This document shows, in pieces, positions 4,242 through 25,817 of a stretch of 35,240 nucleotides of DNA. This DNA is from a virus. Positions within the stretch are counted from its first letter, which is position 1. Each line of letters begins with the position of its first letter. The DNA lies in UHGV virus genome UHGV-0174372; one strand, given 5' to 3'. The position numbers and the translations under genes were made by a program. Below the pieces are notes generated by a model, which worked only from the letters and a program-made list of their open reading frames with translations, searched no databases and was not told the origin of the DNA.

Positions 4242-5539
4242 CAGTTATTACCCGTCGGTAGTGAAGCGGCATTAGCGTTATCTAGTAATCCCGCTTTCTT
4301 GAGAATATGTTGGTAGTCTGCTTGGTAAACATACCAGGTAAGTTTGCGTCGTACGGAATCGATGTGTGGATAACCGTAATAGTTGAATAACGGCAGCAAT
4401 TGTGGTGCGATGGGGACTAATTGATCACTAGCAATCGGGATGAAGTTGCCCGATTGAATAGAGCCTGGCTGCGGGAGCATATCGGGATTAAAAATGGAAA
4501 CGGTGCGGTTAAACATTTCCATGTATAACGGATCGTTAAACCGCGCACCGATAGCTTGCCAGTTAATAGTAATCGTAACATCATCGTTTAACTGCGGTTT
4601 GGAGTTATCAACGTTCGCCATTTGACCCGCGTTATCGTTCATTGGCCACGCGACACAAATCGTCCAGAAACGGGTGATGTTTCCCAGAGCATCGTAACGC
4701 ATCCCGTAAATTCGTGACTGATAATCGATTCTGCGTCGAATGGAGTTACGCATTTTCGGACGGAACTTACCCATCTTCACACCAGACATATACTCCAGCC
4801 ACACCCCCATCATTTTCATTAATGGGTCGCCATAGGGGTTGTTTAATGACATGCTGATGGAAAAGCTGTTGTTAACTTCGTGGGTAGAGTCAACCATCCC
4901 CCACTGTTCACGCATTAAACCTTCACTTGCCATCCAGTTATCAATAGACTGATCGGGTGCACCACTAAGGCTAATCAGCTGCGTACTGAGTATTGGTATG
5001 AACGCTTGTAGATTATCGAATTTTACTTGAGGCATAAACGGCGTACCTAAGCGATTCTTCCGCCTACCGTTTTCCATAGGTGCGTCCGTAAATCCGAGTT
5101 CAAAATCGGGGTCAAGCGCAGCTAAAATCGAATAATCTATGGAGTCCTTTGGCTGCATTGCCATGTTCGACATTTTACGAGACTTAGCAATGTTGTCGTA
5201 GCACAGGTTAAAATCGGGCCGGGTAATAAAAGTTAGTCCACCGTATTCTCGGTTGATTGGCGTGGGGTTAGACGCCATCATATGGTTGAACCCCATGTAG
5301 GGGTTGGTCAAACGCTGCGCAGCAAGACCCAAACCTACAGTAAGACGGATACGATCGTTCCATGCCGTAAGTTCAGTATTAGCGTCGTAAGGCGTCGGGG
5401 GGTTAGCATTACTAATCCTTCCGTCGAAATACCCTGCGACCGAAGGCACTGCGTCCGCATTATTCGGATTGTGGAGAGAATCGTCGTAATCAGTATTCGG
5501 GTCATACCCCGGATCGTTCTTATCTGTCTCGTCACTCAT
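4241..5539 (-). CDS. hypothetical phage protein (432 aa)
   Basis: Long ORF; GGAG Shine-Dalgarno inside the palindrome aactccggagtt about 6 nt upstream of the ATG (5537-5539); stop overlaps the start of the 984-aa gene. Confidence 0.8.
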   Translation of the reverse strand: MSDETDKNDPGYDPNTDYDDSLHNPNNADAVPSVAGYFDGRISNANPPTPYDANTELTAWNDRIRLTVGLGLAAQRLTNPYMGFNHMMASNPTPINREYGGLTFITRPDFNLCYDNIAKSRKMSNMAMQPKDSIDYSILAALDPDFELGFTDAPMENGRRKNRLGTPFMPQVKFDNLQAFIPILSTQLISLSGAPDQSIDNWMASEGLMREQWGMVDSTHEVNNSFSISMSLNNPYGDPLMKMMGVWLEYMSGVKMGKFRPKMRNSIRRRIDYQSRIYGMRYDALGNITRFWTICVAWPMNDNAGQMANVDNSKPQLNDDVTITINWQAIGARFNDPLYMEMFNRTVSIFNPDMLPQPGSIQSGNFIPIASDQLVPIAPQLLPLFNYYGYPHIDSVRRKLTWYVYQADYQHILKKAGLLDNANAASLPTGNN

Positions 5540-10950: not shown

Positions 10951-10978
10951 TTTTCAGATATATATTACCTAGGTGAGA
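10951..10978 (+). promoter_or_regulatory. candidate phage early promoter (TATATTAC core), copy 1
   Basis: ttttcagatatatattacctaggtgaga; a 27-nt tract identical to 19206-19232, placed just after a terminator and about 50 nt upstream of the next ATG. Confidence 0.45.
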
Positions 10979-18242: not shown

Positions 18243-19043
18243 ATGAGTAATCTACTTACTTTCAGAATGTCTGGCCAAACGTTAATCCAAATCGACAAGT
18301 TCGAAGAAGAGAATTTTTCGAAACCGTCGAAGTTGTTAGAACGTTGCCTTAATGTTATTCCTGGTGGTGAACAACGCCAGTTGGATTACATCATGGCGTC
18401 CAGTGCTGACAAAACGATTTCTGTTATTTATACCGTAGACGGTGTACAGAATTGTCGCTTATTACCAATCGAAGAAAAAGGGACGTTAGGTCATTTGTTG
18501 TTCCTGCACGCGATCACAACTGCCGTGGTGTCTGGTGCTTTAGAAGCGCAATACGGCTTTGCTTATTGTTACTTCTATGCTCAGAAATTAGCTGCAGCGG
18601 TTATTCCAGGGCAACAAGAAACCTATCCTCAGTATATTGAACGTATTCTACCCTCACACTTTAGTGAGTCGGAAGACTATGACTTCAATGCGTTTCGTTT
18701 TACCGTAGTGGGTGAAGCCCGCGATCCTGAATATACCACGGCGGTGCGTGCGGTGGTGCGCTATTCTGTTATTTCTACAGACAGTGGCACATCAAATAAC
18801 TTTAATGAAGTGTACCCGGTCTTGCAGTTAGGTCCTTATGTGACCTTCAACAGCTATGTACCTTTCAGTTGCCAGCTTGTGGGTCCGCAGGATAACGATT
18901 CTATTCTCCCTGTTGCGGAAGAAAAGTCATTGTTTATTCGCGAATCCGTAGAGGCTATTAGCGATAAGCGCTTTATGATTTCTTCGAAGACGGGCATTAG
19001 CGATCCTGAAATCGCTGTAATGGATAAGATGCAAGGTCTGTAA
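18243..19043 (+). CDS. hypothetical phage protein (266 aa)
   Basis: ATG 18243 with aaagga at about 7-nt spacing (the track start at 18237 is a TTG). Confidence 0.75.
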   Translation: MSNLLTFRMSGQTLIQIDKFEEENFSKPSKLLERCLNVIPGGEQRQLDYIMASSADKTISVIYTVDGVQNCRLLPIEEKGTLGHLLFLHAITTAVVSGALEAQYGFAYCYFYAQKLAAAVIPGQQETYPQYIERILPSHFSESEDYDFNAFRFTVVGEARDPEYTTAVRAVVRYSVISTDSGTSNNFNEVYPVLQLGPYVTFNSYVPFSCQLVGPQDNDSILPVAEEKSLFIRESVEAISDKRFMISSKTGISDPEIAVMDKMQGL

Positions 19044-19049
19044 AAACTT

Positions 19050-19090
19050 CCCGTTACCTCTGTGGGTAACGGGAATACCTTTTATTTATC
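19050..19090 (+). terminator. probable intrinsic terminator
   Basis: 9-bp stem cccgttacc/ggtaacggg followed by T-rich aataccttttatttat. Confidence 0.55.
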
Positions 19091-19205
19091 CCTAAACGCC
19101 ACACAGAAGTCATTTCTCCATTAAGACGACTAATTACCCTTCAAAAAGAAAATTGCGTCAGAATGCGTTTTAGAGCGTTCTAGAGGGTATATGGATTCAA
19201 AAAGA

Positions 19206-19232
19206 TTTCAGATATATATTACCTAGGTGAGA
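19206..19232 (+). promoter_or_regulatory. candidate phage early promoter (TATATTAC core), copy 2
   Basis: tttcagatatatattacctaggtgaga, identical to 10952-10978; 47 nt upstream of ATG 19279. Confidence 0.45.
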
Positions 19233-19278
19233 GTTTACGTAATACTCATTTATCGAATACCTAATTAGGAGTTATATC

Positions 19279-19392
19279 ATGATTTCTGTAAAACACAAAA
19301 AAGCTATCTTCGCTGTTGTTATCGCTGTTGTTCTGGGTTGCCTGTACCTGGATATCGACAAAGGCTACGACACTTGCATCGACAACGGTAAT
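19279..19392 (+). CDS. small membrane peptide (37 aa), not in ORF track
   Basis: aggag lies 7 nt upstream of ATG 19279. Hand translation gives MISVKHKKAIFAVVIAVVLGCLYLDIDKGYDTCIRQR: a basic N-terminus then a 16-residue hydrophobic helix. Flanked by the promoter-like element and a terminator. Confidence 0.4.
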
Positions 19393-19430
19393 TCCGTTGC
19401 ACAGTGCACTGGTCGTGGTTAATGTATAAG

Positions 19431-19460
19431 GCACCTTCGGGTGCCCTTAATTTTTTTATT
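19431..19460 (+). terminator. intrinsic terminator
   Basis: Stem ggcacc/ggtgcc with a tight loop, followed by cttaatttttttatt. Confidence 0.6.
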
Positions 19461-19476
19461 AATTGGAGCATAAAAG

Positions 19477-20292
19477 ATGATTACTATTAAAGATTATTTT
19501 CCGCGTGGGCTGAGCAATGAAAACTTCGTTCCAACTGAAGACATTGCCATCGTTGCAGAGTCTAACGATAAGTCTTTTAAACTCTACTTGAGTACGGCAG
19601 CAGGAAAATCCACTCTTATTCTTCGCGAACCTGAAGTGATAAGCATCTGCTCGTTTGGGGGCGGTGTAGAAGGAACGATTAATTGGTTGAAATCCAGAAT
19701 GCATCGTTTACTTATCGTGAACACCGATCCTACGATTCGATTACAGCAATTGAAATCGTTGAATGAAGTTATCGTCGGATTATTGGAACACGAAACGTTC
19801 GGTAATGCTGAGATTGCGGAAGCGATTAAATCTGTAGAACTAATCGAGTGGAGTGATATCGAATACGAACGTGCTGCGTTATTCGCAATGCATGGTGACG
19901 ATAATCCCGTTGTGTTTGCACAAACGTTGGATAATGTTACGGTAACGGCGCGCGTATTGTTTGGTTTACAGCGTGTTGAGTTTGAACTGAAACACGTTTA
20001 TGTAAGTAATACTCCAGAGATGGTGGAAACGTTGACTCGTGCGTTCGCTTACCCATTAGACGGAGAATGGGAACAGCAGATTAATGAAGCGTTAGGCGCA
20101 ATGCTGTTCTTAGCAGGCACACTAAGGAAAGAAGAGAAATTAGAAGGTCGTGTTTATCCAGAATACGATTTTGTTTGTGAAGAATGTGGAACACAGTACC
20201 AAATACGTGTTCCTTTAACCGGCCTGACAATCCCGAGAGCCAACGTGGAATGTAAGGAATGTGGCCATGTTCAATACGTAGCGACTAAATAA
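19477..20292 (+). CDS. hypothetical protein (271 aa) with C-terminal CxxC...CxxC zinc-ribbon-like motif
   Basis: ATG 19477 with GGAG at 8-nt spacing; the C-terminus reads ...FVCEECGTQYQIRVPLTGLTIPRANVECKECGHVQYVATK. Confidence 0.8.
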   Translation: MITIKDYFPRGLSNENFVPTEDIAIVAESNDKSFKLYLSTAAGKSTLILREPEVISICSFGGGVEGTINWLKSRMHRLLIVNTDPTIRLQQLKSLNEVIVGLLEHETFGNAEIAEAIKSVELIEWSDIEYERAALFAMHGDDNPVVFAQTLDNVTVTARVLFGLQRVEFELKHVYVSNTPEMVETLTRAFAYPLDGEWEQQINEALGAMLFLAGTLRKEEKLEGRVYPEYDFVCEECGTQYQIRVPLTGLTIPRANVECKECGHVQYVATK

Positions 20293-20298
20293 AAGCAA

Positions 20299-20340
20299 CC
20301 CCTAATCCTTTTCGGGATTAGGGGTACACTTTATTTATTT
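20299..20340 (+). terminator. intrinsic terminator
   Basis: 10-bp stem cccctaatcc/gggattagggg with ttttc loop, followed by tacactttatttattttcg. Confidence 0.7.
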
Positions 20341-20403
20341 TCGCAAATTCAACAACTTGGATTAAATAAAAGGCTTAAAGCCTCTAACAATCTTCGAGTA
20401 CAG

Positions 20404-20433
20404 ATCTTCACCGAAAGGAGAAGTAACTACTAA
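20404..20433 (+). pseudogene. truncated remnant of a small-ORF paralog (3' end only, no start codon)
   Basis: cag atc ttc acc gaa agg aga agt aac tac taa is about 80% identical to the 3' end of the small ORF at 20590-20763 (..QIFTEKRSEHY*); the same frame is open back to 20293 but holds no ATG, GTG or TTG. Confidence 0.3.
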
Positions 20434-20469
20434 ATAAAATAAAGGGGTGTGACAGCACCCCTTATCAAA

Positions 20470-20556
20470 GCTTTAACTTTTCGAAAAGAGAAGTTAAAGC
20501 AGGGTACGCTGGTGCTACAGCGTACCCTTTACAACACCACTACGTTTCCGTAGTGG
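20470..20556 (+). other. cluster of three consecutive perfect hairpins (candidate structured RNA or regulatory element)
   Basis: gctttaactt/aagttaaagc (10 bp), agggtacgctg/cagcgtaccct (11 bp) and ccactacg/cgtagtgg (8 bp) back to back, ending about 30 nt before ATG 20590. Confidence 0.35.
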
Positions 20557-20589
20557 ATTTCTTTAATCACCCTACAAAGAGGGCTTACC

Positions 20590-20763
20590 ATGAACAATGG
20601 TTACTACTTTACCGACAAAATGCTTGCAGAACAGAGTGCAGCAAAGACCAATTTACAGCAACGTATCTACAAGTATAGTCAGCTCGGCATGGATAAACGG
20701 TTAAAACCGTCTACCAACCGTTTCACGCAGATATTCACTGAAAAGAGGAGTGAACACTACTAA
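20590..20763 (+). CDS. small hypothetical protein (57 aa), ORF-a; not in ORF track
   Basis: ATG 20590 with aagaggg about 6 nt upstream. Translation MNNGYYFTDKMLAEQSAAKTNLQQRIYKYSQLGMDKRLKPSTNRFTQIFTEKRSEHY shares the pattern QQRIYKYSQLG / NQRMDEYVRLG with the next small ORF. Confidence 0.45.
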   Translation: MNNGYYFTDKMLAEQSAAKTNLQQRIYKYSQLGMDKRLKPSTNRFTQIFTEKRSEHY

Positions 20764-20843
20764 CAAATAAAGGAGAGGCGTGTCAGCGCCTCTCCTCCTC
20801 GTACAGTAACCTGCCGAGATGGTGGTCGTAGGTATAATAAAAA

Positions 20844-20958
20844 AGGGGGTGGTGAAGCACCCCTTTTCATAGCTTTAACTTTTCCAAAGAGAAGTTAAAG
20901 CAGTAGAGACTGGCGAAACAGTCTCTACTGTACGGTGTCAACACATAAAGTTGTTGAC
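20844..20958 (+). other. second hairpin cluster (variant copy of 20443-20556)
   Basis: ggggtg/cacccc hairpin with T-run, then gctttaactt/aagttaaagc, gtagagactg/cagtctctac (10 bp) and gtcaaca/tgttgac (7 bp), all before ATG 20990. Confidence 0.35.
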
Positions 20959-20989
20959 GTTTTTTACAACATTACGAAAGGTAATGAAA

Positions 20990-21151
20990 ATGAACGATTA
21001 TCAAATACAGCTGTTCAATACCGCGATGCGAAATCGTGAAAAACAAATTCAGTTTAACCAACGCATGGACGAATATGTTCGTCTCGGCCTCGTTGCGGCA
21101 CCGAAAACGGTTAACAACCACAATATTCACCAACCACCTGTAAGGAGGTAA
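20990..21151 (+). CDS. small hypothetical protein (53 aa), ORF-b, diverged paralog of ORF-a
   Basis: ATG 20990 with gaaagg at 8-nt spacing (the track start at 20951 is a TTG). Translation MNDYQIQLFNTAMRNREKQIQFNQRMDEYVRLGLVAAPKTVNNHNIHQPPVRR. Confidence 0.45.
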   Translation: MNDYQIQLFNTAMRNREKQIQFNQRMDEYVRLGLVAAPKTVNNHNIHQPPVRR

Positions 21152-21291
21152 GTTACTAACTAATAAAGGGGGTGTCGCCACACCCCCTACTTAGTTCAGT
21201 AGTTATCTTCCGTTCATAATTAATAAGCCTTCTGTTTTTTTGCTTTTCGGGACGCATAAGGGGTCGTAGGGGGAGCCGAAGCTCCCCAGAC

Positions 21292-22854
21292 TCAAAAGAG
21301 TTCGTCACCCATACCGCCTGTAAAGACGTTAATCGACGATGCAGTCACTGTTTCTTCTTTATCACAATCCCATGGCAAAATGCCAACATCACGGAAAGGT
21401 ATTACAGTATAATGATAAGCTTCTTTGGTATCGATAATGGTACGGTGTTTACCGCGTTGTACTTCTAAATAGCTGTGACCGTTGACGACACGTTTGTTAA
21501 AATACATCTCACCGTCAGCTTCGTTGTCTAAGCTAGAGCAGTTGTCGTAAAGACCACGACCAGGTAAGCTCTTACAGAAACTTGCTGGGTCGAGTGCTTT
21601 TAATTTTTTGCCTTCTGGTGAGATTTGGTGTGGTGCTAATAGGAAACCACGATTACGTACCACTTGGATGTTTCGCGCGATACGATAAATTTCTTTAATG
21701 TCACTACCCGCAATACCGTTACCGTGCCCTGCTTTGCTGATAGTACCGAAATAGTCTCCGCGTATTCCAGCTACATGATAACCTCGACGTTTTAAATCTA
21801 AAATCAAATCATTCAAATAGTGAATTTTAAAATCGGAGTTTGTGTGTTTTTGGAAAATATACTCCCAACCGTTTGCCCGCATTTTACTACAGAGGTAATC
21901 TGACATTTGTGCATTGTGTAGCGCTTTTTCTTCGTCAGTTGCCGTTTCAGGTGCAACCATTACCGGAGCTGTACCTTCAAAGTGTCCGTAAAGTGCTTGA
22001 TACGCGTAAGCCAAGTTAACATCTAATTCGTTTTCTAAACTTAAATCCAGAATAACCGGTTGTAAGTCACCTTTAACATTCGCCATCACCTTTTCTGGGG
22101 TGTTGAATACAGGAATGCTAATAGAGAGCAATAAACTGAATAATGACTTACAGTTAAAGGGTAGTGCAGGCATTAGCCAGAGTTCTTCGGTGATCCCTTT
22201 GTTACAGCCAAGCATTTGGTTAATTGCTTTCCACCCCGTACGCAACCCGTTCCCTGCCGCTTTCTTACTGATAGAGTCGAATACATGTACGAAGGGTGCT
22301 TTATTGTCAGTAATCAATTCCCCTACCAGAGAAGGAATCTTATTATGAGAGCGTTCACTGAACGTGGATAAGGTATCCTTAAGGTCGTTGAGCGCCGTTT
22401 GTAAATCAACACGCGTTTCAGTGCCGTTCAGTGCGCCTAACGTACGACCCAATTTTTGTTTCAGTTGTACGCCTTGAATAGCTTGACGTAACTGAAAGTA
22501 GTATTGTGCTACTTGGCGATTAAGATGCTCGATGCGTGCTTCTGGTTCTTCTGGAATATCATCTTCCAGGAATTTGGTAATCGTATCGTATAGAGGACGT
22601 ATTTGCGTAGTGGCCAGTTTCAAACGTTTCATGACGTTTGTGTGGTCGTAAGGCATACCGCCGTCTATGATGGATGTGATGATATCCTTGATTTCGACGA
22701 GGGCGGCACGTTCGTCACCTTCTTCTGCGTAATCAGGAAGCTTAGCCTCTAACAGCACTTTTCTTATGATGTCGTGGTCCTTTTCAGGATCGGTCAGAAG
22801 ACTTTCAGCGTATAATGTGGCTAAGGCGGTTATCAACATCATTTTGTTATTCAT
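21292..22854 (-). CDS. hypothetical phage protein (520 aa)
   Basis: Long ORF with aagga 8 nt upstream of the ATG on the minus strand; a GC hairpin (21269-21287) abuts the stop; Gly-rich segment GDYFGTISKAGHGNGIAGSD. No motif recognised. Confidence 0.8.
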   Translation of the reverse strand: MNNKMMLITALATLYAESLLTDPEKDHDIIRKVLLEAKLPDYAEEGDERAALVEIKDIITSIIDGGMPYDHTNVMKRLKLATTQIRPLYDTITKFLEDDIPEEPEARIEHLNRQVAQYYFQLRQAIQGVQLKQKLGRTLGALNGTETRVDLQTALNDLKDTLSTFSERSHNKIPSLVGELITDNKAPFVHVFDSISKKAAGNGLRTGWKAINQMLGCNKGITEELWLMPALPFNCKSLFSLLLSISIPVFNTPEKVMANVKGDLQPVILDLSLENELDVNLAYAYQALYGHFEGTAPVMVAPETATDEEKALHNAQMSDYLCSKMRANGWEYIFQKHTNSDFKIHYLNDLILDLKRRGYHVAGIRGDYFGTISKAGHGNGIAGSDIKEIYRIARNIQVVRNRGFLLAPHQISPEGKKLKALDPASFCKSLPGRGLYDNCSSLDNEADGEMYFNKRVVNGHSYLEVQRGKHRTIIDTKEAYHYTVIPFRDVGILPWDCDKEETVTASSINVFTGGMGDELF

Positions 22855-23404: not shown

Positions 23405-25699
23405 ATGAAAGATACCCGAATCTCTAATCTGGAGAAACTCGTACAAGCTGGTAACTCGCTGGTACAAAGCGTCATTAGTAACAACAGTGCTGGCGAAATG
23501 TGGAACACCATCGTTGCTGGTGAGTCTGTACGTAGCAACACGAAAGTTTTTGGTACCCTGCGTGACGATGCTGCACAGCACTACGCAAACGCGTTTGCTG
23601 GCGGTAAGAAAATGTCCCACGCTGCGGAAGTTGCTTCTGCAATGATTCTGGGTGCTGCTGGTCACGGTATGGACCTGCAAGAAAAAGTAGCGCAAGAATA
23701 CGCTAAGCCAGAATTCCATAGCCGTTTTAACCTGGACGTTGCGATTCCTGGTTCCCAAGCTGGTAACGGCGACTGGGGCAAAGAGCGTATGGTTGTTGCT
23801 CAGGAATACTACACCAACAAAGATTACGACAAAAACCTGGGTCTGACCTGGACGCTGAACGTACGTGCTCTGGAAACTCAGTCTCGTTTCGCTGAGACTC
23901 TGTTCCCGACCATCACCGTTGACACCAACGATGTTGGTATTACCGTACGTACCAAAGTGACCACCGTTTCTCGTGGTGTCATGCACGCGTTACTGACCAA
24001 AGACGTTGTTGAAGATCATCGTCGTAACCTGCACGAAGCGCTGACTGACCACACCGTTCTTCAGGACGAAGCGATCAACATCGTTCCTTACGTAATGGAA
24101 ACCGGTGAAAATGCTGAATACTTCGTAAGCGAAGAACTGGTACCGAACGAATCTGTTCGCCTGGGTCGTGTACCTCCGTACCCGACTAACTACCTGAGCT
24201 TTGCTAAAGACACTCTGAACCTGTTCCAGCTGTCTGCGCATCCGGGTATCGTTCAGGAAGGTTACGACGAAACTGATGAAATCGCACCGGGTTGTGCTCT
24301 GGGCAGCCTGCTGATTTCTGTACGTAAACCGACCGAAGAAGCGAAAGCAGGTAAATTCATTAAACTGCACGTTCGTGACATGCAGTTCGCAACCTTCCAG
24401 CGTCCTGCTGAAGGTGATGGCCGTGAGCTGGTACTGCAATTCCGTCGTACTGCGTTCTCTCTGAATGCGAAAACCACCGACTGGAAAGGCGAAGCTATTC
24501 CGGCACTGAAATCACTGGAACAGAACTCCTACACCCTGCGTTATGTGATCACCATCAACATGTCTCTGTTCACTACCGGTCAGTTCGGTGGTAAAGTTGA
24601 CATCGCTGGTCACAAACTGGAAATCGAAGGTCTGTACGACGCTACCGGTAACAAAGTTGATACCAAATCTGGTACCGGCAAAGTTATCCTGGACGGTCTG
24701 AAACTTGAACTGATGGGCTGGCGCTTCGATGGTACTCGTACCAACGAAAACCGTCGTACCCAGGGTCTGCTGCTTGACCCAATCTGGGAACAAGAAAACT
24801 ACAAACTGCAATACGGTTCTCCGATCCTGACCAAGTCTCCGGTTGGCGTTGAATACGACGATACCGAACGTCTGGACGACCTGATTTCCGCAGTTAACAT
24901 CCGTAACGAACAGCTGGCTATCACTCAGACGCTGTCTTACACCGAAGCGGTACGTAACGCTGCTGCAAGCATGATCACTCCGTGGGACAAACCGGCCATT
25001 CGTGGTCTGGGCCGTCACTGGGTTGCTCCGTGGTTCAAAGAGTCTGACTACAACGTTGATGAAGTTGTACAGTCCCTGGATACCAAAGATGCACTGATCA
25101 ACGCTCGTCAGGGCCTGGTACAGCGTATCGGTAATCAGGTAACTCAGGCTATCCAGGAATCTCGCTTCATTCCTGCGCTGCGTCTGTACACTGCCGATCC
25201 GGACATTCTGCCGAAAGTTGTTATTGCAACTGACGAACCGACTGCATCTATGCTGCTGCTGGTACAGGGCGACCAACGTCTGCTGGGCGATCGCTACGAA
25301 TACGAAGTGATCACCACCAACGATGACCGCTGGCGTATCTACAACGCAGCTGACGGTTCCTGGACTCGTCGTCTGCAATGGTTCCTGAAAGTTCCGACTG
25401 CGGACGATGGTTCCTACAACGTGCTGAACTGGGGTAACCACTTCTGGTCTCCGATCATGGTTACCAATATCAACATTCAGCGTAACGGTTCTACCTCTAA
25501 AGAGCTGGCCGTACAGCCGCGCAACGCGCACATCTGCCACTGCCCGATCACCGGTCTGATCTGGGTTAAAGGCATCACCAAACTGGTTGAAGAAAAACTG
25601 GCTTACAATGTTTCTGTTGAACAGAACGGTCAGAAACAAACCGAAGGTGGTGTAGCAGGTAACGTTGCTGGCGAAGGCAAAGCTGCTGCTGGTAAGTAA
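23405..25699 (+). CDS. candidate major capsid protein (764 aa); product assignment tentative
   Basis: The most strongly codon-optimised ORF in the window; size is in the range I recall for phiKZ-type major capsid proteins; N-terminal SAGE and AGES motifs; strong terminator downstream. Confidence 0.8.
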   Translation: MKDTRISNLEKLVQAGNSLVQSVISNNSAGEMWNTIVAGESVRSNTKVFGTLRDDAAQHYANAFAGGKKMSHAAEVASAMILGAAGHGMDLQEKVAQEYAKPEFHSRFNLDVAIPGSQAGNGDWGKERMVVAQEYYTNKDYDKNLGLTWTLNVRALETQSRFAETLFPTITVDTNDVGITVRTKVTTVSRGVMHALLTKDVVEDHRRNLHEALTDHTVLQDEAINIVPYVMETGENAEYFVSEELVPNESVRLGRVPPYPTNYLSFAKDTLNLFQLSAHPGIVQEGYDETDEIAPGCALGSLLISVRKPTEEAKAGKFIKLHVRDMQFATFQRPAEGDGRELVLQFRRTAFSLNAKTTDWKGEAIPALKSLEQNSYTLRYVITINMSLFTTGQFGGKVDIAGHKLEIEGLYDATGNKVDTKSGTGKVILDGLKLELMGWRFDGTRTNENRRTQGLLLDPIWEQENYKLQYGSPILTKSPVGVEYDDTERLDDLISAVNIRNEQLAITQTLSYTEAVRNAAASMITPWDKPAIRGLGRHWVAPWFKESDYNVDEVVQSLDTKDALINARQGLVQRIGNQVTQAIQESRFIPALRLYTADPDILPKVVIATDEPTASMLLLVQGDQRLLGDRYEYEVITTNDDRWRIYNAADGSWTRRLQWFLKVPTADDGSYNVLNWGNHFWSPIMVTNINIQRNGSTSKELAVQPRNAHICHCPITGLIWVKGITKLVEEKLAYNVSVEQNGQKQTEGGVAGNVAGEGKAAAGK

Positions 25700-25752: not shown

Positions 25753-25817
25753 TTTCTATTATTTTTTGGATAGATATTATTAAAGGGAGACGGCCAGTTG
25801 GTTTTAAAGGAGTATGT

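Follow-up and report, generated by a model that had tools for sequence, protein, structure and literature searches.

The DNA examined here, called the window throughout, is a 35,240-nt stretch of the virus genome UHGV-0174372. An open reading frame (ORF) of 520 amino acids (aa) on its minus strand (21292-22854) encodes a DnaB-like helicase, and positions 23405-25699 encode a major head protein. At the protein level the helicase shares 83-85% identity with its counterparts in Erwinia phage phiEaH2 and Salmonella phage SPN3US, and the window is thus part of a jumbo phage of the SPN3US/phiEaH2 group. Between a 271-aa gene (19477-20292, plus strand) and the convergent helicase gene lies a zone of about 1 kb (20298-21188), filled by a tandem array of genes of about 55 aa, hereafter mini-genes, each separated from the next by four to five back-to-back hairpins (Table 1). 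The small ORFs between the hairpins form a copy-number-variable, shuffled cassette array with the hairpins as shared linkers, an aspect that was missed by an earlier note on this DNA, which had described two hairpin clusters at 20443-20958. The hairpins of that note are present, including both copies of its recurrent element gctttaacttttc(g/c)..gagaagttaaagc at 20470-20500 and 20872-20901, recovered here by a repeat finder and by folding, but the feature is wider: the window has 25 perfect hairpins with stems of 8 bp or more, and 8 of them fall inside 20298-21188, an interval of 891 nt for which our own arithmetic predicts about 0.6.

The spacers follow one order: H1 (GGGGTG-N6-CACCCC), the AT-rich H2 of 13 bp, H3 of 11-12 bp, H4 of 7-8 bp and a weak H5. 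Minimum-free-energy folding gives five hairpins in series for spacer 1 (20442-63, 20470-500, 20501-28, 20537-56 and 20570-83) and six for spacer 2 (20771-96, 20842-67, 20872-901, 20902-29, 20937-58 and 20970-86), with plus-strand z-scores of -9.8 and -11.7, respectively; none of 200 dinucleotide shuffles folds as well. The minus strand folds too, but less well (z -8.9), and the plus strand folds better in 12 of 16 spacers, mononucleotide shuffles being the control in this last comparison. The H1 stem consists of 6-10 pairs around the GGGGTG/CACCCC core, and over 24 distinct copies the 8 nt before it contain 5.7 A on average and the 8 nt after it 4.7 T. A terminator scan returned 13 terminator-like sites, compared with 3.3 in shuffles. 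We also noticed possible outer helices, one of them enclosing H1-H3 in a multi-branch fold (TCGTAC/GTACGG, window 20799-20804 with 20930-20935) and another enclosing H2-H3 in the first spacer of the related contigs L073 and L081 (GTGACAGCGT/ACGCTGTTAC); these are not conserved in all arrangements.

H2 is the most distinctive element. Across 14 spacer copies it is near-invariant apart from its loop and is followed by H3 with zero intervening nucleotides in every one of the 14. In every copy the stem has a U.G wobble, always at the same position, which pairs on the plus strand only; a loop of 4 or 5 nt and a symmetric A-U to U-A swap in the stem are tolerated. Searching the window with the 31-nt H2 pattern gave no further match, and shuffled sequence gave none at all. 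The earlier note had also taken the loop of the first copy for a conserved nested palindrome. This palindrome, cttttcgaaaag, occurs in the first H2 copy only, in the window, in L007 and in the L067 group, the other H2 copies reading ..TTTTCCAAAGAG.., ..TTTTCGAAAGAG.. or ..TTTTCCGAAGAG... As it depends on one extra loop A that most copies lack, we consider it incidental.

Table 1. Features of the hairpin and mini-gene zone and its borders, in window coordinates (a point in the strand column marks a feature given without a strand)
Feature	Position	Strand	Sequence or size	Remark
Early-promoter-like motif	19206..19230	+	TTTCAGATATATATTACCTAGGTGA	Upstream of the transcription unit running into the array
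H0	20298..20325	.	ACCCCTAATCC-N6-GGATTAGGGGT, then TTTATTTATTTT	11-bp GC-rich hairpin; terminator-like, for the 271-aa gene
3' remnant, mini-gene type W	20345..20433	+	..QQLGLNKRLKASNNLRVQIFTERRSNY* (protein end)	Aligns with full-length ORF W of L011 and L020
H1, copy 1	20442..20463	.	AAGGGGTG-TGACAG-CACCCCTT	A-run before, TTAT after; bidirectional-terminator-like
H2, copy 1	20470..20500	+	GCTTTAACTTTTC-GAAAA-GAGAAGTTAAAGC	13-bp stem
H3a	20501..20528	.	AGGGTACGCTG-GTGCTA-CAGCGTACCCT	Abuts H2, no linker; always before mini-gene A
H4a	20537..20556	.	CCACTACG-TTTC-CGTAGTGG	
H5a	20570..20583	+	CCCT-ACAAAG-AGGG	Weak, 4 bp; overlaps ribosome-binding site of mini-gene A
Mini-gene A	20590..20763	+	57 aa	pN/pS 0.1-0.3 over 19 orthologues
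Hairpin after gene A	20771..20796	.	AGGAGAGGCG-TGTCAG-CGCCTCTCCT	Occupies the H1 position for gene A
3' remnant, mini-gene type Y	20799..20831	+	..SYSNLPRWWS* (protein end)	Matches end of ORF Y in L008, L030 and L035
H1, copy 2	20842..20867	.	AAAAGGGGGTG-GTGAAG-CACCCCTTTT	
H2, copy 2	20872..20901	+	GCTTTAACTTTTC-CAAA-GAGAAGTTAAAGC	
H3b	20901..20930	.	CAGTAGAGACTG-GCGAAA-CAGTCTCTACTG	Always before mini-gene B
H4b	20937..20958	.	GTCAACA-CATAAAGT-TGTTGAC	
H5b	20970..20986	+	CATTAC-GAAAG-GTAATG	Ribosome-binding site in loop
Mini-gene B	20990..21151	+	53 aa	55 aa from upstream ATG at 20984
Last H1	21167..21188	.	AGGGGGTGT-CGCC-ACACCCCCT	Faces helicase gene
Helicase 3' hairpin	21270..21287	-	GGGGAGC-UUCG-GCUCCCC	Directly after helicase stop codon; zone boundary

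The small ORFs are real coding genes: the ratio of nonsynonymous to synonymous differences per site (pN/pS) lies between 0.1 and 0.3 in types A, Y, W and X, and ribosome-binding sites are present. Types A, B, X, Y, Z and W are paralogues of one another and of SPN3US gp71 and gp72. The family comprises 63 protein clusters, all annotated as hypothetical and confined to contigs of about 220-244 kb from this phage group; it has no match in Pfam, a tblastn search with mini-gene B gave chance matches only, and our literature search found no paper on SPN3US gp71/gp72. Mini-protein A is modelled as one 29-residue helix with a disordered basic tail (pLDDT 68.5). Two further types persist in the window as 3' remnants, W having lost its 5' part through a deletion at a TTCAACA microhomology and Y the remainder of the gene together with its leader. 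With junctions at microhomologies of 3-7 bp (TTCAACA and TCG), these remnants indicate that cassettes were recently lost from this genome.

A Shine-Dalgarno-like AGGAG(G/A) lies 5-25 nt before the stop codon of every mini-gene, in the window at 20413-20433, 20741-20763 and 21137-21151 and also at the 3' ends of SPN3US gp71 and gp72 (5990-5960 and 5735-5705 of L002). It encodes Arg-Arg, with the rare AGG/AGA codons, in the clade of the window and Gly-Gly in SPN3US and Machinavirus; the nucleotide motif has therefore been kept although the frame in which it is read has changed. The crossover of a hybrid gene in phage SPFM4 falls on this motif as well. Protein clusters P0004, P0006, P0008, P0035 and P0047 contain frameshifted, read-through and chimeric mini-proteins from public assemblies (for example X with the C-terminus of Y), as expected if recombination is frequent and the C-terminal tails are weakly constrained.

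Through pattern scans and protein look-ups we obtained 27 related contigs (designated by L numbers) with flanks 85-98% identical to those of the window. The six mini-gene types (X, Y, Z, W, A and B) occur in 11 orders, counted over 28 contigs: AB, XB, YB, XA, XYA, ZWA, YWA, X'WA, WY, YA and WA. H3 and H4 usually travel with the downstream gene. The H1 loop, the H2 loop variant and the variant of the T-run that follows H1 are reshuffled without regard to either neighbouring gene, and one H3 type is paired with two different H4 types. The spacer is therefore itself a mosaic, produced by recombination within it.

The element is restricted to this locus. Queried in distant mode with 1.1 kb, the hairpin region has no DNA-level match among sequenced phages. 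Scans for H2 in viral, metagenome and genome collections returned mostly chance palindromes and terminators, and only contigs similar to the window were kept; L004, L005 and L029 (31% GC, no similarity) are among the hits left out. The exact-stem H2 pattern matched 17 sites in 185,579 species genomes, all rejected as unrelated chance palindromes or terminators; they are isolated and form no arrays, unlike what a mimic of CRISPR repeats would give. Nor does H2 resemble dispersed repeats of the REP/BIME or MITE type, being present at one locus in the window and at one per related IMG/VR contig, and the corresponding cluster of SPN3US is unique. We found no tRNA or tmRNA in the region, and no Rfam 15 family reaches its gathering score, the best being the ylbH leader with 23.4 bits against a gathering score of 50.

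Related genera show what the array looks like at greater distance. Seoulvirus genomes carry one or two mini-genes, and the hybrid gene of SPFM4 is joined at a shared AGGAGGTGA motif. Of the 101 perfect hairpins in the whole SPN3US genome, 94 are solitary, 4 are arranged as two pairs and the other 3 as a triple; this sole triple cluster, at 67345-67425, is the gp70-gp71 spacer, the homologous locus. A covariance model of H1-H2-H3 found the two mini-gene spacers as its two best hits in SPN3US, although weakly (E about 0.04-0.05). In Machinavirus (Huxley and pSal-SNUABM-04) the layout is the same, the locus reading terminator, AT-rich hairpin TTTATTTTC-GCAAA-GAAAATAAA, GC hairpin, 47-aa gene and H1-like hairpin, and the left half of this AT-rich hairpin persists after H0 in the window (20328-20346). 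Neither mini-gene nor hairpin cluster was found in phiEaH2, Asesino, Caitlin, Kwan, CR5 and Erskinevirus. Since the genera without mini-genes also lack the cluster, the hairpins belong to the cassettes and are dispensable. One record calls for care: in SPFM1 (L086, LR535901.1 175675-176934), as in other SPFM records near 172-176 kb, the match to SPN3US is cut into successive 60-nt blocks that stand in reverse order, each block itself being forward, which looks like a deposition artefact (reversed file lines) and not biology. The SPFM20 protein P0063, compared at the protein level only, likewise has its segments in reverse order, as the same artefact would produce.

The structure is kept while the sequence changes, as the earlier note had proposed from the two copies in the window. 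Over 14 spacer copies, 99.1% of the alignment cells that should pair do so, against 42-59% in slid controls, although the sequences of this test are related, so that its shuffle control is not a probability. In these copies 7 of the 11 pairs of H3 change on both sides, as does one pair of H2, for which both a one-sided A.A intermediate (10 copies) and the completed swap (7 copies) exist. Stem variants AAGGTACGCTG and AAGGTGAGCTG of H3a occur with matching right arms, H4a has the two-sided variant CCATTACG/CGTAATGG (and a loop reading TTTC or GAAA), and the H3b stem of L008 is CAGCAGAGACTG/CAGTCTCTGCTG, again a two-sided change. Apart from the H2 wobble, imperfect stems are G.U on the plus strand in about six cases and A.C in two, a bias in favour of the plus strand that is suggestive only.

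Pairing is not all that is conserved. In the leader of gene A, compared over 19 genomes, the differences per site amount to 0.05-0.07 in the stems, 0.057 in the linker between H3a and H4a and 0.055 in the 31 nt before the ATG, against 0.30-0.58 in the loops; gene A itself has a pS of 0.24 and a pN of 0.04, and the loops thus exceed the synonymous rate. Since the linker and these 31 nt diverge no more than the stems, the whole leader is constrained, with hypervariable loops, a pattern that we read from sequence comparison as purifying selection.

Part of this loop variability has a peculiar form. When the hairpins of the window were compared with the same hairpins in L006-L008, L011, L020, L026, L035 and L067-L085, hexaloops were found to be exactly reverse-complemented between genomes that are 95-98% identical, and both orientations coexist in 9 of 18 hairpin groups without following relatedness. 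The H0 loop (20309-20314) is TTTTCG in the window and CGAAAA in L006, L007, L008 and L011; the H3a loop (20512-20517) is GTGCTA in the window and TAGCAC in L007; the H3b loop (20913-20918) is GCGAAA in the window and TTTCGC in L006; and the loop of the hairpin after gene A (20781-20786) is TGTCAG in the window and CTGACA in L026. Among relatives, H0 has three loop forms (14, 7 and 6 copies) and the last H1 has seven loop variants, which include two flip pairs. One-step conversion of one hairpin arm to match the other was also seen. Terminators with a UUCG tetraloop never flip, the one at 19430-45 being fixed in 18 of 18 copies, and H2 does not flip either, with no inverted form in a variant list of 52 copies. 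The loop of the hairpin at the 3' end of the helicase gene is fixed in 21 copies; this hairpin keeps its position across genera with different stems, lacks a U-run after it on the minus strand, and may be a stabiliser of the 3' end rather than a terminator.

Loop inversion and template switching are established for non-coding hairpins of chloroplasts and for bacterial quasi-palindromes; our literature search found no paper on loop inversion in phages. We infer that the flips at this locus reflect inversion or template switching of the DNA palindromes. Since a mutation in one arm can be copied into the opposite arm by template switching, two-sided changes alone are no proof of selection on RNA. 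The suggestion of the earlier note that the stems show compensatory change is thus only partly sustained: two-sided stem changes do occur in related phages, but, as such changes can arise mechanically in DNA palindromes, they are not clean evidence of RNA selection. H2, on the other hand, stays imperfect (U.G) and uninverted, contrary to palindrome correction, which argues for an orientation-specific constraint on the plus strand.

With respect to transcription, SPN3US has six copies of a 25-nt AT-rich motif, TTTCAGATATATATTACYTAGGTGA, upstream of gene blocks (56290, 65409, 94235, 113982, 165685 and 223277), with C or T at position 18. Conserved AT-rich motifs are the predicted early promoters of the virion RNA polymerase in jumbo phages (PMC7598289), and, judged by sequence and placement, this motif is probably the corresponding promoter of the SPN3US group. 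In the window we read the complete 25-mer only at 19206-19230; its 14-nt core CAGATATATATTAC is matched exactly twice, at 19209 and 10955 (site 10952-10976). The motif at 19206-19230 is followed by a 47-aa membrane-type gene, a UUCG terminator, the 271-aa gene, whose product has a C-terminal zinc-ribbon-like motif (zinc-ribbon matches are weak and sub-threshold), H0 and the array. No copy was found in the spacers, and we therefore also rejected H2 as an early-promoter consensus. A sigma-70 scan of 19000-22500 gave 6 sites, compared with 6.8 in shuffles, with one weak 9/12 match in a spacer (20963-20991). As no promoter is recognisable in the spacers, the simplest assumption is that read-through from the early promoter expresses the mini-genes, the alternative being a promoter of an unpredictable type. 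A second repeated motif of SPN3US, (GA)GATAGATATTATCT, is located at 4427, 7392, 23810, 25226, 28969, 72486, 72684, 92541 and 184044, twice just after the major capsid gene, and has a 12/14 match at the equivalent place in the window (25769-25782); it may be another promoter class.

Taken as a whole, we think it somewhat probable that the hairpin clusters are intergenic linkers of a fast-rearranging array of paralogous mini-genes, which end and stabilise transcripts and provide homology for recombination. The array would lie at the end of an early transcription unit, facing the convergent helicase gene. H1 would act as a bidirectional intrinsic terminator and protector of the 3' end, insulating each mini-gene and blocking antisense read-through from the helicase side, and H2-H5 would form the structured 5' leader of the next mini-gene, protecting the 5' end and shaping access to the ribosome-binding site. 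The near-identical block of about 60 bp formed by H1 and H2 (and, to a lesser degree, H3) would supply homology between otherwise diverged cassettes, and recombination there would delete, duplicate and re-order mini-genes. Template switching during replication at the DNA palindromes would keep the stems perfect and repeatedly invert the loops.

Several observations sit badly with this account. The earlier note had offered a series of terminators, and this fits the GC-rich first hairpin with its A-run and T-run; the features of an intrinsic terminator are present in H0, H1 and the hairpin after gene A, partial in H3a (TTTAC), and absent from H2, H3b, H3y, H3w and H4. Without a T-run in H2, H3b, H3y and H4, only H0, H1 and perhaps H3a can be accounted for by termination. 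A spacer with four to five hairpins also has more of them than termination and one 5' stabiliser require, and the ordinary terminators of this phage are single hairpins with UUCG loops. The deletion junctions visible in the window are microhomologies inside ORFs (TTCAACA and TCG) and not hairpins. Template switching can yield two-sided changes in palindromes without selection, the relatedness of the copies mentioned above limits the pairing test, and our literature search found no transcript-mapping paper for the SPN3US group. Finally, that H2 hardly varies and never changes orientation speaks for a sequence-specific role outside this model; together with the fixed wobble, these traits suggest a specific partner.

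The earlier note had listed a structured RNA and a protein-binding site among its candidates, and either may apply to H2. H2, alone or stacked on H3, could be a sequence-specific RNA recognition hairpin, bound by an RNA-binding protein of the phage or host (possibly the basic mini-proteins) or processed by an endonuclease, the other hairpins being accessory. We regard this as unlikely, and it is compatible with the linker model. It would explain why H2 is almost invariant across spacers whose flanking genes share about 12-38% amino-acid identity, why it is never inverted while hexaloop hairpins flip freely, why the U.G wobble is fixed in all copies with variants adding G.U pairs on the plus strand, why a 4- or 5-nt loop and the symmetric A-U to U-A swap are tolerated, and why the junction with H3 is always zero; AT-rich hairpins with a related loop-proximal core (TTTTC..GAAAA) are moreover found at the same place in SPN3US and Machinavirus. 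Yet recombination or gene conversion between spacers would account just as well for the sequence identity of the H2 copies, the modelled mini-protein consists of one helix in which no RNA-binding fold can be recognised, and Rfam gives no match. As for processing, which the earlier note had also put forward, RNase III is unlikely because the single stems are only 8-13 bp (13 bp in H2), short of the T7 R-site type of about 20 bp, two helical turns and, usually, an internal loop; a stacked H2+H3 helix of 24 bp is conceivable. One might go further and speculate that H2 and H3 are the recognition element of a phage factor, possibly the basic mini-proteins themselves, making a self-contained module of hairpin and mini-protein that is regulated or even mobilised, an integrase-free counterpart of integron cassettes; this we consider rather improbable. 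That the palindromes have no function at all, being duplicated with the cassettes and kept perfect by template-switch correction of quasi-palindromes, seems quite improbable. The loop inversions in half of the hairpin groups do reveal active palindrome dynamics at the DNA level, the stems are nearly always perfect with few G.U pairs, as arm copying predicts, and the whole array is dispensable in several genera. Template switching nevertheless cannot explain linkers and a 31-nt leader far less divergent than the pS of gene A, the triple-hairpin layout is kept across three genera though the sequences have been replaced, and correction would leave the reverse of what is seen in H2, which in all copies is imperfect and uninverted.

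The remaining readings place the signal in the DNA. H2 might be a double-stranded site, either the operator of a dimeric protein or part of a middle or late promoter for the non-virion RNA polymerase, giving each mini-gene its own regulated promoter. Its perfect 10-bp half-sites GCTTTAACTT/AAGTTAAAGC are AT-rich and highly conserved, the spacers lack the early-promoter-like motif, so that the mini-genes need read-through or another promoter, and late promoters of such phages are too short to predict (PMC7598289). We find this very improbable, as the spacing of the half-sites varies (10 or 11 bp), the A/T and swapped T/A versions coexist in one genome (L030, L035), which fits pairing better than base-specific contacts with a duplex, an exact-match scan finds the motif nowhere else in the window and at one locus per 220-225-kb IMG/VR contig, and sigma-70 sites are not enriched. 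Dedicated cassette exchange at the hairpins, similar to integron attC sites or IS200/REP elements, or a selfish palindromic element spreading between spacers, appears highly doubtful. As in integrons, small ORFs of the same orientation, with no recognisable promoter of their own, are bounded by imperfect palindromes and shuffled in order among close relatives, and the H2 ends GCTTTAAC..GTTAAAGC loosely recall the RYYYAAC/GTTRRRY cores of attC. But no integrase, recombinase or transposase is annotated anywhere in SPN3US and none was seen near the array, H2 with its 30-31 nt is much shorter than attC (about 57-141 nt), the element sits at one locus and is not dispersed, and crossovers do not fall at one point: breakpoints are spread across H1, H2, H3 and the interior of ORFs, which fits general homologous and microhomology recombination. 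Hardly credible, finally, is a structural DNA signal beside the helicase gene that would serve replication, as an origin or priming site, or packaging, as a pac-like site. The cluster is the sole multi-hairpin cluster of the 240-kb SPN3US genome, lies directly downstream of the DnaB-like helicase gene and has AT-rich elements, but phiEaH2, Asesino, Caitlin, Kwan and CR5 keep the helicase neighbourhood without it, its copies vary freely in number and order, the hairpins accompany the mini-genes and not the helicase, and no skew switch specific to the site exists. We rejected an origin or packaging signal because the array is missing from these related genera.

Giant phages of the phiKZ and SPN3US types use their own RNA polymerases, and how they end, insulate and stabilise transcripts is poorly known, as is the gain and loss of their small accessory genes. 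The locus offers a compact natural test bed of 11 rearranged versions of one array, a contrast between freely flipping and orientation-locked hairpins, and one invariant hairpin. It also carries a methodological lesson, in that loop inversion and arm-to-arm copying in DNA palindromes can mimic RNA covariation.

Several known systems resemble parts of this array. Loops exactly reverse-complemented between perfect arms, and recurrently so, are shared with the small inversions of chloroplasts and with bacterial quasi-palindromes; here they occur in a phage, with stems of only 8-12 bp, in many hairpins of one locus and beside an H2 and UUCG terminators that never flip. H0, H1 and the hairpin after gene A resemble bidirectional intrinsic (Rho-independent) terminators in their GC-rich stem, short loop, A-tract and T-tract and their position in a convergent zone, a likeness that the hairpins without a T-run do not share; the certain single-direction terminators of this phage have orientation-locked UUCG tetraloops, in contrast to the freely invertible hexaloops of the array. 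The giant phages phiKZ and 201phi2-1 possess sequence-conserved hairpin terminators, some directly downstream of promoters, as well as conserved structured 5' untranslated regions (UTRs) and small RNAs derived from them (PMC11512511). Compared by description and not by sequence, they share with the phage of the window the possession of their own RNA polymerases and, as far as sequence predicts, hairpin terminators and structured 5' UTRs, but their terminator motifs are spread genome-wide, while the array is a single locus.

The closest parallel to the linker model is provided by the promoter-early stem-loop (PeSL) cassettes of T4-type phages, in which a stem-loop terminator is combined with linker-mediated shuffling of small ORFs (Arbiol, Comeau & Krisch 2010, PMC2839356; Comeau et al. 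2014, PMC4122927). In PeSL cassettes, recombination of adjacent elements gives rise to excised mini-circles. By sequence features, both have a short conserved intergenic stem-loop of the GGGG..CCCC type in a terminator-like placement, repeated between small non-essential ORFs of a hyperplastic region in which close relatives differ by insertion, deletion or replacement, and both have been proposed to serve in the insulation of transcription and as homology in modular shuffling. The PeSL element, however, includes a strong sigma-70-like early promoter with -35, -10 and an upstream AT-rich region (PMC2839356, PMC4122927), and the spacers of the array have neither a sigma-70-type promoter nor the early-promoter-like motif of the phage itself. 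Further, these linkers contain three to five hairpins instead of one, with the invariant AT-rich H2 in addition; their cassettes are paralogues of one family and not unrelated ORFans; and they reside in an SPN3US-like jumbo phage that encodes its own RNA polymerases. Lacking the promoter feature, the array linkers are a functional analogue of PeSLs and not a member of that class. If the linker model is true, the PeSL idea would extend from T4-like phages to an unrelated lineage, without its sigma-70 promoter part.

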